Position numbers and translations under genes: made by a program
Shown here: positions 4,527 through 37,916 of the stretch, piece by piece
Layout: each line of letters opens with the position of its first letter
Position numbering within the stretch: position 1 is the stretch's first letter
The notes under the pieces: generated by a model
The model's database searches: none
What the model was told of the DNA's origin: nothing
What the model saw: only the letters and a program-made list of their open reading frames with translations
Assembly: GCA_000091205.1 (NCBI GenBank)
Contig: AP006497.2
Reading direction: 5' to 3' (one strand)
Length of the DNA stretch: 64,000 nt
Source: Cyanidioschyzon merolae
Lineage: Eukaryota

Positions 4527-5549
4527 TTACCGCCGCCGCCGCTGCTGCCGACGACGACGTCGACGTTGCCGCGGCTTTCGTATACGTGCATCAAAGTCGT
4601 TAAACAGTGGCCCTGCGGCAGCAGCAGCAGCAGCAGCAGTAGCAGCGGCACTGGTGATGACTGCGGTATGCAGTCTACGAACGCAGCCGTACATGAATCG
4701 GCGCCCATAAGGTGGCACCTCTACTCTCGACGCCAGCTTGAACAAGCGCTCGGCGAGTTGCTGACGATGCTCTGGTTGAGACAAGTACACGAGCTGGTCT
4801 CGTTGATTTGGTACTGCAGCTGGGGCACGTACCAGCGGTTCCCACAGTCTCTCAAAGGCGCGTCGCATAAGTACTTTGCGGTTGCGCTGCTGCGTGGCGC
4901 TAGCGCGCTCCATCGGCGCAAGATATAGACGTAAGAATGGTTGTACGGCGATATCAACCGGGTGCGTTGAATCAGTGTCCAGGGTAAGTGATTCAAGGCC
5001 GCCCGGCGCTTGACAGAGCACCAGTTCGAGCCACTTGTCGCAGACGTGCAACGCCATCCCGAGTGCTGCGGGTGCCGCTTCGAGATCCAGGTCCGCGCTT
5101 GTCCCTACCAGTGGTTCGAATACGACACGTTCCACAATGCCGGTGAGACGTCGCCAGTGGTCCACCTGATCCACACATAAAGAGGTTGCGGCGCTGAGCG
5201 ACCTGTTTAGCAACGCATAGTACTTGTCCAGCCGTAAATGGTCAATTTCTATCCAGTATCGACAAATTGTCTCCCACATGACCTCAAAATAGAGCCAGTT
5301 GTCCACCGCGAGCCCCAACCACGAACAGAGTCTTTCGAGGGTCCAGTTGATCGCGGACGGTGTGTCGGCGAACCAGAGTGTGTAGTAGAGCGCTCGCCAG
5401 ACCCTTCGCATACCTTTCGGAGAGAGTGGTGCTGGTTCACGTTGGCACAACATCCGCTCTACTTTACGAAGTGCTCGGTTCCGCACTTGCGCATCGGAAG
5501 ATGCCAGTTGCCGCGCGAGCGCTGTCTCTGCAGTTCCTGCGACCGCCAT
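4527..5549 (-). CDS. RRP1: Nop52/RRP1 family ribosomal RNA processing protein
   Basis: N-terminal LASSDAQVRNRALRKVERML...MRRVWRALYYTLWFADTPSAINWT matches the Nop52 signature (LASNEK.VRD.AL..L; LWKGLFYCMWMQDKPL). The poly-Ala/poly-Arg C-terminal tail is encoded by GCN/CGN repeats. Stop is TAA. Confidence 0.75.
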   Translation of the reverse strand: MAVAGTAETALARQLASSDAQVRNRALRKVERMLCQREPAPLSPKGMRRVWRALYYTLWFADTPSAINWTLERLCSWLGLAVDNWLYFEVMWETICRYWIEIDHLRLDKYYALLNRSLSAATSLCVDQVDHWRRLTGIVERVVFEPLVGTSADLDLEAAPAALGMALHVCDKWLELVLCQAPGGLESLTLDTDSTHPVDIAVQPFLRLYLAPMERASATQQRNRKVLMRRAFERLWEPLVRAPAAVPNQRDQLVYLSQPEHRQQLAERLFKLASRVEVPPYGRRFMYGCVRRLHTAVITSAAATAAAAAAAAGPLFNDFDARIRKPRQRRRRRRQQRRRR

Positions 5550-9729: not shown

Positions 9730-10110
9730 CTATCGATGAACATCGTACAGTACGGATTCGTGCTTGCGTTGTAGACCCATCGTCGCAGATGCAGGAGTGC
9801 AGCCATTCCGCATCACAGCACAGTGAGCGCCATTGGCTACCAGCGAACGAGGTGACATGTCGATCATTTCCTCTCCCGACTCATTGAACACGTTGGTGAA
9901 CGCAGGCTTCTTGTCTCCGTCCGCTTGAGATAGAAAGACGGCGACTGCGGCTACGCGCTTCGAACGGAGATCCACGCTGACAACAAAGACTGTATGATCA
10001 TCTACCGTGAAATGCTGAAAAGGAGTCTCATCGCTCGAATCGGGCCGAGGTTCCATTACGAAATCGATATCGCATGAGTCTCTATATTGTCGTCGCAAAC
10101 TGCTTTCCAT
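9730..10110 (-). CDS. hypothetical small protein (alpha/beta fold, roadblock/longin-like by eye), function unknown
   Basis: 126-aa ORF with a protein-like, non-repetitive composition (DIDFVMEPRPD...TVFVVSVDLRSKRVAAVAVFLSQADG). I do not recognise any family. Confidence 0.2.
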   Translation of the reverse strand: MESSLRRQYRDSCDIDFVMEPRPDSSDETPFQHFTVDDHTVFVVSVDLRSKRVAAVAVFLSQADGDKKPAFTNVFNESGEEMIDMSPRSLVANGAHCAVMRNGCTPASATMGLQRKHESVLYDVHR

Positions 10111-18983: not shown

Positions 18984-19001
18984 CTCTGCTGCTGCTGCTG
19001 C
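18984..19001. repeat. (CTG)6 trinucleotide repeat
   Basis: ctgctgctgctgctgctg read directly from the sequence. Confidence 0.8.
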
Positions 19002-20156
19002 TGCTGCATTCATCTCGAGGACCGCTCGAGGGAAGCGGGATCGATCCAACTGGCGTGTTGGATTGGTGCAGCAGTGCGTATAGCGTACGCGTTATGGAAT
19101 CGGCATGGATTCAGACTGACACAGTGACTGACCGACACGCACTGATATACAAGCACGTACGTACGAATGCACACATAGGGGCCATCCGGTTGTCTTCGAA
19201 CGGGTCCATAGCAGTCGTCTCATGATAGATAGTCAAAGCAACTGCGCAACAGATGCATGTCCACGTCAACTTAATACGCTGTTGCGCTTCCAGACAGCTT
19301 TTAGTTGAAGAAGCAGGCATCCACATGGGGGTATCGCTTTCTTGAGTAGAATTCGTTTCATTCCTAGGATGCGGAGTGTGCTGAAACGGAACTGTTCGGA
19401 AAGGGTACAAAAATTGCACTGTACAGAGGCAATTGGGCCGGCAAGGAATCCAAGCGATTTGCACAGCACTTGTTCCAAGGCGCTCTCTCCCATATAGCCA
19501 GCATATGGTCTATACAAACAATTATCAGTCTGGAGCATCCTTCAGCCTCGGCGATTTCGTTGGAAACGAAGGATGCGCGGTCCATGATCCGTGCGTGGCG
19601 AATGTCAAGTTGCGGACTTGCCGACGAACTTGGACGCTGGCGGTAAATGGCATTAGTGCCGCCAAAGCGGCGCTTGCTCCAACTGAACCAGCCTTGGTTT
19701 TTTAAAGGATATTTCTCTTGTCCACAATCCATGTTTATCCAAAGATGTGGTACTACAAGTCCATCTGAGAGGAATCTGGTTGACGCCGGCGTCGACGCTT
19801 CCTGGCTCGACTTCTCCGAACTGCGGAGCACGCAACAGTCAAAGCTGATCCGGGGTCAACATGGCTCTGTCGATGACCGCCTAGCGAAGGTCTCAAAGGC
19901 TTCAACAGAGCGGCACGCGAGGCAAGTGGTTCGGGCGGCGACCATCTGCTGCGGCCGTCCAAGGCAGCGAATCGTAGGAAAGTGTCGTCCATAGATTGCA
20001 AATCCTTCAGATCGCCGTGCTTCTACAAGGAACTGCTGGCGAATCGCAGCTGCGGGCGCTGCCTCTGACCGCATGTCGCTCTACTGCGTGTCCACAAAAC
20101 AACGTCTCTCCATCTCAATCCGAAAACAAGCCACTACTCTGGATGTTCTCCGGTGG

Positions 20157-21499: not shown

Positions 21500-22010
21500 T
21501 ACGACCCATCGGCAGATGCCTCCTCCAGGCCTTTTTCGACCGGCTCCTGCTATTCAGTTCATCTGCTCCGTGTAGACATCGATATTGAGAGGGTGCCTTA
21601 CAAAGGTAGAGGGCGTCAGCTCCGCGGGTCTCGTCTTCAGCACCGCACATCTGCTGATGTTGATAGCGGCGTTGAAGTCTCGGTTCAAGAATTCCAAGCG
21701 ATTATAGCATCTGGTGGAACTGATCAACGTAGGGGTTGCAAGAACTCGTGCCCTATGTGCCATTTGCTGCTCTTTCAGCTCTCTGAGGTTTTCAATCACC
21801 GAAGCGCTCCGCTGGATTTTGTCTTTCTCGACCTCCTGAAGTGTGCATCCCAGTTCATACCTTATTTTAAAATGAAAGCACTTGTTCATTTCCTTAGGTA
21901 AGGGCATTCCCGGGGCGAGAGGGACTTGCAGAAGAAAGACGAAACGTGCTCCAGCGTTACCGTGTGCTGAGCGCTTCAGCGATTCGCCCAGTGGAACGAT
22001 CGTTACGCCT
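21500..22010 (-). mobile_element. truncated TnpB/Fanzor-like remnant (copy B): C-terminal RuvC-III region plus conserved 3' flank
   Basis: ORF 21554..21907 gives ...NRLEFLNRDFNAAINISRCAVLKTRPAELTPSTFVRHPLNIDVYTEQMN. The upstream open frame adds ...KCFHFKIRYELGCTLQEVEKDKIQRS. The block is about 50% identical to the C-terminus of the long copy at 33946..35655. The shared 3' flank CCTTTTTCGACCGGCTCCTGC sits at 21527-21548. Confidence 0.6.
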
Positions 22011-31633: not shown

Positions 31634-32106
31634 GGTTGAAAATATCTAGCTCTTTCTCGTGCACGCTAGTTTGAGCGCTGTGTGGCGTCTGGAACTGTTG
31701 CGCCCAGCTCAAGGAAACGCACAAGTGTTACAGTCGGATTCGTTGGCACAGTTCGACTATAAGAAGCCCAGCTGTAGGCGGAGGTTTCCTTCGCTGAGGC
31801 GTTCACGCACTGAACGAGTGTCAACGTTCAGCGCGCAAACTTTTCCTAGGGCTATTTTTTCTCAAACACGCGAAGCTTCGATGGCGCCAGAATGTCGACG
31901 CTAGCCAACCGCGTATCTGTATCGTCAACGTGCTTGTTCCGCTTACGTCTTCGCGTTGAAAGAGCATTCGACATAAAACGAAGATTCGACGACGGAATTC
32001 GGGAGCGTCCGCGGGAGACACGCGGTCGGGCGTCGTGTCCAATTTGGGCCGTGCCTCACGCGCAACGTGTCCGGCGGATACAGACATGCGCGCGCACGCA
32101 CGCACG

Positions 32107-32122
32107 CGCCGGCCGGCGCGCC
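32107..32122. repeat. 16-bp perfect GC palindrome (CGCGCCGGCCGGCGCG) inside an (ACGC)n-like GC tract
   Basis: Read directly. It lies at the left boundary of the lower-GC block that holds the TnpB/Fanzor-like copies. Confidence 0.6.
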
Positions 32123-32425
32123 TGCGAGCTAACTACGTCATCGTCATGCACCGCAACTGGATTCCATAGACAGGCGCGTGTCATCTCATGCTCTTTCGAG
32201 GTGTAAGGCAGACGCGTTCGATTGCGTCTATTTAAAGTAATATAAAATCCAAGGTATGGAGATGAAAGTCGGGGATCCTGGCGGACCGTCATCGCCGGGC
32301 GCCCGGAAAAACGAAAAAGTCCTCTTCTCGCCTGTCATCGAGCGAAGAAGCGCAAGTGACGTAGATGAAGAAGAGTGGAGATAGTCAAGAAAAGGTGCTT
32401 GATCCACGAGACGATGACGAGACTG

Positions 32426-32700
32426 TAGTGGCACAGAGGGCACGAGTTCAATGAGCCCCTGCGATCATGGGTTCAACCACCGGCAATGTACGCGAAGAAT
32501 TTCGTGAACCGTGACCCCAACGCCGCCATGAATATAACACGACGTGTGGTGCTGGACACGAGTCCCGCGGAGCTGAGGCACTCTAGTTTTGTGAGGAAAC
32601 CGCTCAAGGTCGAATTGTGCAAGAAGAAGTAGAAACCAGTAGCAGGTGACCGGTCAAAAAAAGGCGGGGCGGTGTCGGCGAGTGGGTATGCGTACCCCGC
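32426..32700 (+). mobile_element. truncated TnpB/Fanzor-like remnant (copy C): RuvC-III region plus conserved 3' flank
   Basis: Plus-strand frame gives ...AMYAKNFVNRDPNAAMNITRRVVLDTSPAELRHSSFVRKPLKVELCKKK* (stop near 32630). This is colinear with copies A and B. The 3' flank GCAGGTGACCGGTCAAAAAAAGGCGG at 32641-32670 matches the flanks of A and B. Confidence 0.55.
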
Positions 32701-33945
32701 TCTACGGTCGTGAGCCATTTTTCGTCTTGCTGAGTATATATATGGACGCTAGTGGAGGCGATGACTTAAACTACGCATAAGCGACATTCCGCGGGGATGT
32801 TCCCGAGGGCCTTGTCCTGATGTGTTACCCGGTATCGCGCGCTCCCTGACCAATGTTTCAGTTTGCCGGGCAGTAGGTGAACCAGCCAGCTATCCAGCGG
32901 GTTGTTTAGGTACAGGCATATTACATTCCCTTAAATTCACGAATCTTTTTAAGGAATCCTCTTGTTTCATACTACTACTTCCGTGCTTTTCGCGCTTAAA
33001 CTGAAATGCGCACAGAATACTCCGTCATGGATACCGATTGCGCAGCGCCTGCTTCTCTTCCACATGCGTGTGTCTCGGACCTAAAAAGTGCAGTATTTTG
33101 CGGTTATCCTGGAGTGTCGCCCTATCCACCGCAGAAGTAAACTCGTCCGGTGCCTGCTTCTTCCGATGCGCTGCGGCTGTACTGAACAGCAACGCCCGCT
33201 GAGACGCGGTCGTTGTGGAGTATTCACGTCGCAACCCAGCCAAGCGCAGCTTCCATACAAGGAAAGAAAGCTCTAGCGTCTCCTTTAAGTGTTGCCGACG
33301 TTGCGTTGGGGAACACCACTGGCCAGTTCGACCTTGGTGATGCGCCCGCCCATCTTCATGATCCGCTGCTGCTCGCTGTACCAGGAAGTGAACGGCACCA
33401 TCTTCGTTGTCGCAACGTTCTGCAACTCGCGACCGCTGTCAACACGTGACTGACTGGGCAGCACATACGAGACCTTAAACATGCGGCGATCATTCGCAAC
33501 GCCAGATGACTTGATGCGCCGCGGTCCGAGGTTCCCCGCGCTGCTCCCGTTCATATCGTACCCTGTCATGCGGACGCTCCAGGACGAGTGTGCCAAGCAC
33601 CGCTGCGACTCTGCAGACTTTGCAGAAGCCTTAACACCTGTTCCAAAGAAACTGGTCTGAACGAACATGGTCAACGAACGAAGAAACACAGAGAACAAAG
33701 ATATCGCGAAGTTGTGAGTCAAAAGACGGTGGTGCAGCGAGCGCAGCCGGCGAGCTCGCTTGCGTATTCTCGCCACGTTCTCGCCGGCCGTGTACAGTAG
33801 TGGCGATCGGCGCGCCTTGGACAAAACGTCTCCAACTGATGTGCAGACGCCTCCCCGTCTTTTTGGACCGGCCACCAACTACTTCTTCCAATTTTATCTC
33901 ATATAGTTCGACCTTAGAAGGTTGTCCAAAAAAGTACCTTCTTGT

Positions 33946-35655
33946 TCACTCTGGAGGTCTCGTCTCCAGCACCGCACATCTCCTGATATTGATGGCAGCG
34001 TTAAAGTCTCGGTTCGCAAACTCCATACGTTTCTTACCATCGTTGGTTGTACTTACTAATGCAAGTAGCCCTCGAAGTTTCGCCCTCCTTTCCATTTGCT
34101 CTTCCGTCAGCGGTCCGTACTTTTTTGCATCCTCAGGGCTCCGCTGGCACTTTTCCATCTCCACTCTCTGGAGCGTGCGCCCCCGCTCATGGTGTGAATG
34201 CGATGTTCGAAACTCATCTATCGGTATTGTAACAAAACGCCGTGCGCACTCCTTATACGTTCTCGTCGTTGGAGCTGGTGCAGTCCCTTTTTGGGTCTTC
34301 CATCGCCCTGCTCCGTACGCTACTACGAGCCTCTGACTTTCATCCTCCTTCAGGGCACTCAACTGATTGAAAAAATTCGCGAACGCCCGCTGCTTCCCAC
34401 AATACAAGTTCATTCGAAGACGAGCCCACCGGGGCTTGGTATACTCCTCCCACAGCGCATCCCAATGGGCAACACGAACTTCCATGAATTTCCGAAAAGC
34501 TTTAAAGTCCGCTCCTCGACTCATCACCTCGCTCAAAGCTTCCAGGTGCTCGTTCATTCCTGAATTTCAAGTCTCGATTTTGTTCCTTGCATTCATGCTT
34601 CCCGATTCTCGATAATATCTCGCTCTCGAGAACCTCAACAGACGCATGTCTTTCTGACATAAGTTACCGTCAGGACCATCTTCCGCACGCTTCGGTGCTG
34701 CGATGGTGATGATATTTGTGTTGCCGGGGTCCGCGCCAATGACAAAGTCGTTATCCTGCACTTTCCGCGTCTCAGGATCTGCTTCTTTCTCATCTTCATC
34801 CTTCGTCACCTCAACGACATGCACGTTATCCTGCACCTGCTGCATCGCAGGATCCTCCTTTTCGTTTTCTTCATCCTTCGCCGCGTCAACGACAAGGTCG
34901 TTATTCTCTACCTCCTGCGTCGCGGGATCCGCCTCCTCCTTTTCCTCATGGTTCGCCGAGGGCGGGACTGGTCGATCTCTCTTCAACCGCCGATAGTGTA
35001 CACACAAGGCTACTCCATCGGTTTCGATTAACCCAGTGGACAACTTTTGCTTGCTCACTCTCAGACGTTTGGAGCTGAAGATATTCTTCCAGGACATCTC
35101 CCGGTTTTCACCGGAAAACTCCTCCCTGCTAACATCGAACTCGGGACTGATCTCCTTCATGATGCCATGAGGGATTCTGGAGTCGATAGTCACGAAATGT
35201 GACTTGATATTGGACATTGGAACGACGTTGAAGCGCTTCTCCTTTAGGACAGCCTTCCTTTCCTCCCACTCTAAATTTTCCCTATTCAGCCTCATCTCTG
35301 CTTTGCGTTCGAGCTCTCGGTCGAGAAATACGAAATATCGCAGGAAAAGGCGATAGTATCTTTCCTTATCTTTTTTCAACTCTGATATCTTGTCTGTTGG
35401 ATTCGCCATCCCCAAGATTGCACGGTGCGCTTGTAGAACCGCGCGGATTACAGAAGCCTCATTCGTGCTCTCGTTTGACCCCTTCTCTCCGGCGAATTCG
35501 ACCTCATCTTGATGCTTACGATCTTTCGTGATGCCATTCATAATCGCCCATTTTCCATTGCGCGATAGGCCCGGGTAGAGTGCAATCACGGCGCGTATCA
35601 TGAAACGTTCGAGGCTCGTTGTCAAATGGTTCTTCAGGTTCGTGAGGTACTTCAT
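33946..35655 (-). pseudogene. TnpB/Fanzor-like RuvC nuclease (OMEGA-family, eukaryotic Fanzor-type) gene, recently pseudogenised (copy A)
   Basis: ORFs 34567..35655 and 33946..34557 share one frame and are split by a single TGA. The first ORF contains the RuvC-I motif DFVIGADPGNTNIITIA. The second contains a TnpB-like zinc-finger region with Cys replaced (FVTIPIDEFRTSHSHHERG, compared with V.KVNPAYTSQTCSCCG) and the RuvC-III hallmark MEFANRDFNAAINIRRCAVLETRP. A second TGA sits where copies B and C have Leu. The same frame stays open upstream to about 36084 (ORF 35794..36084), interrupted by TAA and TGA. The putative RuvC-II Glu appears replaced (LVVAYGAGRW). Confidence 0.7.
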
Positions 35656-36989
35656 CGCTCCGCATGTGTAAATATCCCGGTGACTCTTGTACCGACGAAC
35701 CCGTAAGAGGGATGTTTTTCGTGGAAGGCATGCACTAGCTCATTTTTCCTCCGCGCTTCCTCTGTACCAAGCATCAGGTGATGAATAAAGGTCTTATCGA
35801 AAAACCCGTCCGGGAACCTCGACCGTTTCCATGTGCGTCACGTCGCGATACATCTCCCTCGCCAAATACATCAGTCCTGACGACGCCTTGACAATACTCT
35901 TGGAGTACGAGTCGACACGTTTTTTGATAGCGTCTCGCAACTTTTCGCTGTACGGATCCTTGATATATCCAAGAAGAAAGGTTTTCACCACCTTCTCGTC
36001 GTACAGCCGTCTTTCTTGCTGCCTTCGACGTAGGGCCTCCCCCTTTTGCTTCTTTTCCTCTTCCTTTTCTTCTGGAATGGGCACTGTTTTTTGTTTTTTC
36101 TCCAGCAGCCGGCGACCCTGGGCCTCCAGGATCGTGAACTTGCTTTTTCACAGCTTTCCTTGTTTTGTTTTTTTTTTGAAAAAGAACGCTCTTTGAACCC
36201 TTCTGTTATATACTGCAAAAAACACTAGACTAGACTTGTTTGAAGTTTGAAACAAAAACGAACTGAAAGACTGTACTTTGCTATGACCTCAACGGAAATC
36301 CAACTTTCTACAGCTGAACAACACGCTAGAGATCAGGATCGCGTTTCCGTTCAACGGAGGCATACGCGTCGTGTCTCATGCCTGCCTGATCTCCCAGTTG
36401 CGCTCACTGAGCGCGATGCGTGCACCGCGCGAGACGCCTCACCGATCAATAAAGGACACGTGTCCGACACCCTGCATTGGCACGTGCGTGTTCGCATCGC
36501 ACTGCAGCCAAAATAACGTATCGTAGATCGGAAACTCACGTAGAATGCACTCCTGCTATAGGCTATGTCGTTGGTGCCTATCGCAGTGCCGCCCTGAAGC
36601 ACAGTCGGTGTTGTGGCACGCTTGGATCTCCATAATGCCTCCAGAAGAAGCGTAGCTTTCGCAGCGGCTCACGCTTGTCTGGATGAGGTGTGCATCACAC
36701 TAGCCTTGAAGAGTTTCGTTAGTTTTATTGATCGTAACCAAAGTAGGCATATTAGTGTTCCCGAACACGGCTACAAGTTTATTCCCTATGCTTGTTATGC
36801 ATGCTGCACGGACGCTGCAGGGAGTATCTAATTTGAATTGTGCTTCTATCCTGCGTCATAGGCTGGTACTGATGACAGCTCAAGTCATTTCCATGCTGCT
36901 TTCGTTGTCTAAATTATGGTGCCTGCTTCGTCCTCCGGATCCGGTGATCTTGGCAGAGGCAGAGCACACTCGACGGGCCCTTTGCTATC

Positions 36990-37125
36990 GGTTTCAGCTT
37001 CTCCTTGTTCAACTCTGGGCTGGGAGGTTCCCCCATAAAGTTGGACCGCGTCAGCTCCGCCGATCGCGCCTCCACCACCATACATCATCTGACATTGATG
37101 GCGTTTTGTCTAAAACGCTCGTGAT
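36990..37125 (-). mobile_element. highly degenerate TnpB/Fanzor-like remnant (copy D), frameshifted
   Basis: Minus-strand frames give ...LYHERFRQNAINVR* and, at +1, CMVVEARSAELTRSNFMGEPPSPELNKEKLKP. Together these are colinear with NRDFNAAINISRCAVLKTRPAELTPSTFVRHPL in copies A to C. The antisense signature RSRLHHHTSSDIDGV is visible in ORF 36728..37156. Confidence 0.4.
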
Positions 37126-37497
37126 AGAGCTGAGGTCAAGAAGCGATCAATCTTGACCGACGCTATCAAACGAGCGGTAACAGAAGCTGAGGGCTGTAGC
37201 CGGCACCAGGTGCTCTGGTGCCTACATGCTGGCCGTGAATCGTGCGTGACGAAGCCGCACAGCATGCCACGGTTTCCTAGTACGTAAACCAAGCACGTAT
37301 TCGAAACGTTCGGGTTCAGTGTGATGACGAGTCGCCGCTGCGGCATTCTGGGAAAATCATCCGAGTGCGCTATGGTTTTTCGAATATCGAGCATCATCAC
37401 GAGTGTGGGTGCGCTTCACTGCACGAGTTGCAACGATCACCGAATCCACCATCATCCAAAAGTGACGAAAATTCACATGCGCACCGGCCTCGCACCT

Positions 37498-37877: not shown

Positions 37878-37916
<39 letters not shown>

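Follow-up and report, generated by a model that had tools for sequence, protein, structure and literature searches.

Cyanidioschyzon merolae carries 253 copies of a 3.2-kb interspersed repeat, which make up about 5% of its genome and are transcribed (Nozaki et al. 2007, PMC1955436). All open reading frames (ORFs) of this repeat were described as truncated and as weakly similar to WSV486 of white spot syndrome virus (WSSV) (PMC1955436). WSSV and C. merolae were subsequently listed among the hosts of Fanzor1 (Bao and Jurka 2013, PMC3627910). The C. merolae element CMe-1A has approximately 150 copies that are about 80% identical to a consensus of about 3 kb, has no terminal inverted repeats (TIRs) and was published with its target-site duplication (TSD) undetermined; its 5' 635 bp are the element TE-N2_CMe (PMC3627910).

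We analyzed a window of 64,000 nucleotides of C. merolae DNA (GenBank assembly GCA_000091205.1, contig AP006497.2; "the window" denotes this whole stretch), in which an initial annotation, made from the letters alone, had reported a eukaryotic homologue of the RuvC nuclease TnpB, of the Fanzor type, as a long and freshly decayed copy on the minus strand. That interpretation was supported in part: a decayed, nuclear Fanzor-type homologue of TnpB is present, but the arguments made about its decay did not hold. We conclude with great confidence that the locus is a dead copy, under neutral drift, of C. merolae's major interspersed repeat, whose ancestor encoded a Fanzor1 protein of 780 amino acids (aa). 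Matched by published description, the element is a member of the already known 3.2-kb repeat, or CMe-1A.

The minus-strand frame from 36084 to 33946 translates as had been described, with four stop codons (TAA at 35794-35796 and TGA at 35740-35742, 34567-34569 and 33946-33948). Lesions were defined against a majority consensus of 27 copies, built from metagenome copies, which has an intact ORF of 780 codons from ATG to TAG. The consensus protein could be aligned to window segments 36151-36041 and 36099-33820, and the paralogue P0001 matched the window with 70% identity over 752 residues (tblastn, E = 0), far beyond chance. As shown in Table 1, comparison with the consensus revealed a lost start codon and three frameshifts. 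The description of the frame as free of frameshifts and interrupted only by in-frame stops was therefore wrong.

Residues 97-135 of the frame first described do not match relatives, and the peptide that does match (FFDKTFIHHLMLGTEEARRKNELVHAFHEKHP) sits in another frame. Because the frame is out of register between the two indels at about 35814 and 35696, the TAA and the first TGA, which both lie inside that stretch, are not point nonsense mutations of an open frame. Nor is the terminal TGA a natural stop, as homology extends to 33820. The limits of 36084 and 33946 likewise had to be revised, since the pseudogene begins upstream at 36151 and the whole element is considerably longer than the frame. 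As the ATG is now GTG, and the coding region carries three frameshifts and two nonsense codons, the window copy is inert and cannot make the protein. A seemingly continuous frame may thus hide compensating frameshifts, which calls for caution in reading such loci.

The motifs quoted in the initial annotation were found where it had placed them: DFVIGADPGNTNIITIA at 34699-34749, LVVAYGAGRW at 34300-34329, FVTIPIDEFRTSHSHHERG at 34180-34236 and MEFANRDFNAAINIRRCAVL at 33967-34026. All three catalytic codons (Asp, Glu and Asp) are retained in the window copy. An apparent replacement of the RuvC-II Glu had been taken as a sign of inactivation. In Fanzors, however, Gly or Pro occupies the canonical RuvC-II position, and an alternative Glu lies downstream, where it precedes the first Cys of the zinc finger by six residues (Jiang et al. 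PMC10530073; Yoon et al. PMC10711439). Because Fanzors use this alternative Glu, the Gly at RuvC-II is no sign of inactivation, and the alternative Glu in DEFRTS is intact here. A "missing" RuvC-II Glu should accordingly be read with caution, being the norm in Fanzors. Distant relatives show DEFRTSQMCHAC, with the pattern ExxxxxxCxxC, in which the alternative Glu stands before the zinc-finger Cys. DPG at RuvC-I is a described Fanzor signature (PMC10711439), and the motifs DPG, DEFRTS and RDxNAA make a Fanzor recognizable by reading a sequence unaided.

Relatives were assessed in a large protein collection, which yielded 122 homologues, nearly all from JGI hot-spring metagenomes. Many of these carry PF26935 (DUF8286), and the most distant carry PF07282 (Cas12f1-like TNB domain). 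In an alignment of 20 diverse members the columns of the Asp in DPG, the Glu in DEFRTS and the Asp in RDxNAA were invariant. A profile of these 20 homologues was compared with the Protein Data Bank (PDB) and matched PpFz of Parasitella (9cf0, E 5.8e-23), SpuFz of Spizellomyces (8gkh, E 9.4e-16) and GtFz of Guillardia (9cer, E 8.2e-10), with nothing significant in the PDB beyond Fanzor1 entries.

An AlphaFold2 (AF2) model of P0001 had a mean pLDDT of 77.5. When this model was compared with the PDB by Foldseek, the seven best matches were all Fanzor1 (E 1.6e-16 to 4.2e-13), followed by ISDra2 TnpB (8h1j, E 0.027) and Cas12 proteins. Target-normalised TM-scores were 0.69-0.73 for SpuFz, which gave the best superposition, and 0.53-0.55 for PpFz and GtFz. 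The profile search and structural superposition that had been proposed as checks thus returned significant Fanzor1 matches and, in the paralogue model, the split RuvC fold. The call of a eukaryotic TnpB homologue of the Fanzor kind was correct, and profile similarity and the predicted fold identify the family as Fanzor1.

P0001 is an uninterrupted ORF of 752 codons on hot-spring metagenome contigs (L002:10001-12259 and L003:773-3028). An ATG is lacking at the position of the consensus start, and the ORF stops early, directly after NFIG. P0001 is uninterrupted although divergence from the consensus is typically about 10% among copies of the family. It might represent a copy in wild Cyanidioschyzon that was active recently or still is.

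Several points weigh against the identification of the window feature as a copy of this Fanzor1 repeat. The read-through conceptual translation by itself had no match in Pfam, NCBIfam or PDB sequences, and the assignment depends on a profile of relatives, not on the window sequence alone. The structural model is that of P0001, a paralogue 70-73% identical, and not of the window copy. CMe-1A and, probably, TE-N2_CMe were matched by their published descriptions. At the RNA level, a search of Rfam at E ≤ 1 with region 31800-37400 gave no match, and RNAalifold of the last 235 nucleotides (nt) of 29 copies returned a weak structure of -5 kcal/mol with no compensatory pairs. Finally, the CxxC...CxxC zinc finger between RuvC-II and RuvC-III is absent, the window copy reading TSHSHHERG...LALVSTT.

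The initial annotation was right that the zinc-finger cysteines are missing, but not in reading their loss as inactivation of this copy. The intact 780-aa consensus is likewise devoid of them (TSYTHHELGC...LALVSTT), as are the uninterrupted relatives P0001 and P0070, and CxxC...CxxxC is kept only in the distant relatives P0107 and P0111-P0119. Because the intact consensus ORF and uninterrupted relatives share the absence, the loss characterizes the clade and is not peculiar to the window copy. "Many" Fanzor members have been reported to possess the zinc finger (PMC10711439), which hence is not strictly defining. The zinc-finger cysteines are also missing from a wide range of full-length relatives in Logan, ENA and JGI assemblies (P0070, P0078 and P0087-P0106, alignment A1), which suggests a sizeable zinc-finger-less subclade of Fanzor1.

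Identity of the window copy with the 27-copy consensus is 89.6% (10.4% diverged), within a family range of 86-91%. The orthologous metagenome contig L001 shares 98.1% identity with the window copy, differs from it by no indels and has its ORF interrupted at the same places, as does a second such contig (L074); every lesion is common to the orthologous loci of other strains. Of the 44 in-frame substitutions relative to the orthologue, 12, 14 and 18 affect codon positions 1, 2 and 3, respectively; 18 are synonymous and 26 non-synonymous. Because the substitutions are spread evenly over the codon positions, the copy evolves neutrally: the pattern is that of drift in an old pseudogene, with no sign of purifying selection. 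Given this divergence, the sharing of lesions across strains and the neutral pattern, the description "freshly decayed" is unsupported. An empty site, that is, a strain without the insertion by which the ends and the TSD could be defined, was not found, as the same pseudogene is present on every contig that extends to the locus.

The lesions would be only apparent if the locus were still a working gene, expressed by stop-codon readthrough and programmed frameshifting. The three intact catalytic residues would fit such a gene, as would the reported transcription of the repeat family (PMC1955436). It would, however, have to function with its start codon lost, with three frameshifts, one of them a deletion of 7 nt, and with two TGA codons. 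The substitutions relative to the orthologue also speak against it, and all copies have been reported to have truncated ORFs (PMC1955436). We regard a working gene as hardly credible.

The limits of the element were defined by comparison with 73 related loci; 71 related metagenome loci were taken, chosen by protein matches. The 3' limit is sharp, with homology ending at 33775-33796 in 62 of the 73 loci, and the terminal hairpin extends it to 33744. On the 5' side most copies are homologous to about 36400-36420, and nine loci to exactly 36969. At least four unrelated 5' modules, labelled A, B, C and D, join the common core at a single point, corresponding to 36398-36420 in the window (related loci L002-L073). 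The junction, ATCG followed by CGCTCGGTGAGCG, is itself a small hairpin. Because unrelated upstream modules meet the core at the same point, we infer from these alignments that the family has swapped 5' regions. Module A, the one present in the window, probably corresponds to TE-N2_CMe of Bao and Jurka (PMC3627910), again matched by description.

About 35 distinct copies were compared at their terminal hairpin (L040:6386-6414, L039:6150-6178 and window 33744-33790 are examples). The hairpin sequence exists in three versions whose stems differ, TCGTTCGA-CTT-TCGAACGG, ACAACGTTTTTC-TTTT-GAAAGGCGTTGT and CCGGCGAG...CTCGCCGG, all of which fold well (z -3.4 to -5.5). A G/T-rich flank often follows immediately (GTTGGTG, GGTGGTG). 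Within the element there is a single ORF. Its linker before RuvC-I contains a tandem repeat (Table 1) whose equivalent in P0001, residues 382-471, has a pLDDT below 50; the gapped alignment to P0001 suggests that the number of repeat units varies between copies. No TIRs were detected when the two terminal 200-nt segments of the consensus core were compared, which gave only chance matches of up to 8 nt, and a terminator and promoter scan of the 3' end found nothing. A Helitron or IS605-like classification was considered, but neither 5'-TC...CTRR-3' ends nor a TnpA or Rep gene were seen.

These ends bear on how the repeat spread, a question separate from the identity of its ORF. The repeat could be a non-autonomous element copied via RNA by the machinery of a retrotransposon lacking long terminal repeats (non-LTR), with the 3' hairpin as the recognition signal. 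Such copying would account for 3' ends that are sharp in 62 loci beside variable 5' ends, and for at least 10 independent copies that are cut at the 5' end while none is cut at the 3' end except at the ends of contigs. The modules that meet the core at one point, the absence of TIRs both from the consensus ends and from the published element (PMC3627910), and the G/T-rich sequence after the hairpin are also in line with it. Non-LTR elements are the sole class I elements (retroelements) of C. merolae, three of them with an intact reverse transcriptase ORF (PMC1955436), and an association of Fanzor1c with long interspersed nuclear elements (LINEs) has been reported (PMC10530073). However, no poly(A) tail, no clear microsatellite tail and no TSDs were found, and the hairpin was present on no non-Fanzor element in 675 kb of related contigs. 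Another remnant in the window, at 32251-32690, is internally deleted and not simply cut at its 5' end. Deletion bias and nesting, in so compact a genome, could mimic the pattern and would explain it more simply, and the set of loci was selected by protein matches. We consider copying via RNA possible but unlikely.

A wider proposal would make the Cyanidioschyzon clade a zinc-finger-less Fanzor1 that spreads by an RNA-mediated or rolling-circle-like route via its 3' hairpin, a route that would yield 5'-cut copies with swapped 5' modules, with at least one near-intact member, P0001, perhaps still active at 40-55 degrees C and low pH. Taken as a whole, we judge this proposal to be quite improbable.

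With regard to function, the ancestral repeat encoded a 780-aa Fanzor1, a eukaryotic descendant of TnpB with a split RuvC site (Asp of DPG, Glu of DEFRTS and Asp of RDFNAA). By homology with characterized Fanzor1 and TnpB enzymes, the ancestral protein presumably associated with an RNA that the element itself produced from its 3' end, and may have cut DNA matching this guide RNA (omega-RNA). The source of the guide would have been the conserved 3' region, with which the final part of the ORF overlaps. The 3' 180-240 nt of the consensus fold only modestly better than shuffled sequences (z about -2). A hand-picked 9-bp helix (CAGTAGTGG with CCACTACTG) was dropped, as it showed one compensatory change and many mismatches.

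Even with a dead protein, the copy could have been kept for a role of its RNA or DNA, either as an orphan guide-RNA scaffold acting in trans or as a regulatory element for the adjacent CpcD-domain gene. Three observations would be compatible with retention: the 3' hairpin is intact in the window copy, with a structure conserved among paralogues in three sequence versions; all strains sampled have the insertion and its lesions; and the family is transcribed (PMC1955436). Sharing among closely related strains is, however, expected of any old neutral insertion, and the 3' region is no better conserved relative to the orthologue than the rest of the copy. The lack of covariation for a larger RNA fold and of an Rfam match, given above, also counts against such a role. 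We therefore think it very unlikely that the copy is retained for its RNA or DNA, and we read it as a dead, drifting member of the repeat family. Coordinates of its features are collected in Table 1.

Table 1. Features of the Fanzor1 copy and of related remnants, in positions of the window.
Feature	Position	Strand	Details
Whole decayed C. merolae Fanzor1 repeat copy, 3,226 bp	33744..36969	-	Homology limits and terminal hairpin
5' module A, common to only about 9 of 73 related loci, with other modules elsewhere	36398..36969	-	
Fanzor1 pseudogene	33820..36151	-	Ancestral 780 codons; start lost, three frameshifts, two nonsense codons
Former start codon, now GTG (consensus ATG)	36149..36151	-	
+1 frameshift, additional A within an A-run, consensus codon 16	36101 (about)	-	Relative to 27-copy consensus
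Out-of-frame stretch between +1 insertion (about 35814) and 7-nt deletion (about 35696)	35696..35814	-	
75-bp tandem repeat, 2.8 units, encoding acidic 25-aa repeats in disordered linker before RuvC-I	34749..34957	-	
RuvC-I catalytic Asp, D of DPG (GADPGNTN), intact	34729..34731	-	Invariant column D484, 20-member alignment A1
Nonsense TGA, Trp in relatives (ETWNSG)	34567..34569	-	
Canonical RuvC-II position LVVAYGAGRW, Gly instead of Glu, normal in Fanzors	34300..34329	-	PMC10530073
Alternative RuvC-II Glu, E of IDEFRTS, intact	34213..34215	-	Invariant column E656; PMC10530073, PMC10711439
RuvC-III catalytic Asp (NRDFNAAINI), intact	34006..34008	-	Invariant column D725
Premature TGA, Trp or Ser in relatives with ORF continuing	33946..33948	-	Consensus protein aligns in-frame to 33820
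3'-terminal stem-loop, 11-bp outer stem	33744..33790	-	-31.7 kcal/mol, z = -5.5 relative to shuffles
Fragment of another copy, C-terminal 44 aa, abutting 5' end of main copy	36971..37103	-	
Second remnant, interior (about 2 kb) deleted	32251..32690	+	First 26 codons 32256-32333 (MEMKVGDPGGPSSPGARK...), last 57 codons and 3' region 32498-32690
Third remnant, C-terminal 113 codons, beside FBPase gene	21524..21859	-	48% identical to consensus protein

Three further remnants of the family lie in the window (Table 1). The fragment that abuts the 5' end of the main copy was considered as a terminal direct repeat, a reading that is not supported for this copy, as the fragment had no match, at the threshold applied, to the 3' end of the main copy. 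It matched only the two other remnants in the window (69-72%), and also lacks its own last 100 nt or so. Fanzor1 copies were found adjoining one another. At four or five paralogous loci, the complete 3' end of another copy was observed 14-280 bp upstream of the same 5' module. Elsewhere in the window, consensus residues 589-632, which surround AYGAGR, were weakly matched by tblastn at 9781-9912 on the minus strand (E 0.006, 41% over 44 aa). This match may be due to chance or to a very old remnant.

The window belongs to chromosome 15 of C. merolae 10D: seven of the eight window ORFs compared were exact matches to C. merolae 10D proteins within BAM81583 to BAM81602, from a record of 902,900 bp. 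Neighbouring genes are ordinary nuclear ones (RPN10, Nop52, ATP12, SCO1, FBPase, Mrd1, SDR, a CpcD-domain protein, Mpv17/PMP22, Hus1 and eIF3 subunit 7), and the main Fanzor1 copy is intergenic, with the CpcD-domain gene on one side and the Mpv17/PMP22-family gene on the other. Together with the exact protein matches, these neighbours bear out the earlier view that this is a nuclear copy.

The nuclear CpcD/allophycocyanin-linker-domain gene lies immediately downstream of the element (33285-33668, minus strand). Its ORF as listed, to 33878, overlaps the 3' end of the element, and the likely start is an internal Met at about 33668. Trinucleotide (GCA)n/(CTG)n microsatellites were observed at 37878-37913, 4618-4638 and 18986-19006. 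The first of these, just upstream of the Mpv17/PMP22-family gene, gave a spurious match to the repeat flank in locus L050.

The detection of this locus amounts to a rediscovery of the most abundant repeat in a well-studied genome, one that was already named as Fanzor1 in 2013. The family may still be of interest for its thermoacidophile origin, the intact 780-aa consensus that could be reconstructed, the lack of the usual zinc finger, and a mode of transposition that has been unclassified since 2007. In PMC3627910 and PMC1955436 we did not find the exact lesions, the 3' hairpin in three versions, the polarity of truncation or the alternative 5' modules.

Compared with the prokaryotic TnpB of IS200/IS605 and IS607 (ISDra2 TnpB, 8h1j), the C. 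merolae element shares the split RuvC fold and a conserved non-coding 3' end with which the final part of the ORF overlaps. It differs in having no TnpA partner, a rearranged position of the Glu and no canonical RuvC-II motif of the IAIEDL type. The protein is also much longer, with an N-terminal extension, and the host is a eukaryotic nucleus.

Similarity is closer to the structurally characterized Fanzors SpuFz (8gkh, 9ceu), PpFz (9cf0) and GtFz (9cer), with which the C. merolae family has significant profile similarity and the overall fold in common. Shared motifs are DPG at RuvC-I, Gly at canonical RuvC-II, the alternative Glu in DE[FY]xTS and RDxN at RuvC-III. In contrast, identity in structural alignments is 12-15%, the C. 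merolae clade has no CxxC...CxxC zinc finger (THHELGC ... LALVSTT), and an acidic linker of 25-aa tandem repeats precedes its RuvC-I. The window copy is, moreover, a pseudogene.

The closest described systems are the 3.2-kb repeat and CMe-1A. The window element agrees with both in its place in the C. merolae nuclear genome, its size (3,226 bp here), its truncated ORF of Fanzor1/WSV486 type, and the absence of TIRs and of a recognizable TSD. As described for CMe-1A and TE-N2_CMe, a distinct 5' segment occurs in only part of the family. Divergence is of the same order, 10% here relative to a metagenome-based consensus and about 20% as reported relative to Repbase. We found no substantive difference from these published repeats, of which the window element is one member copy.

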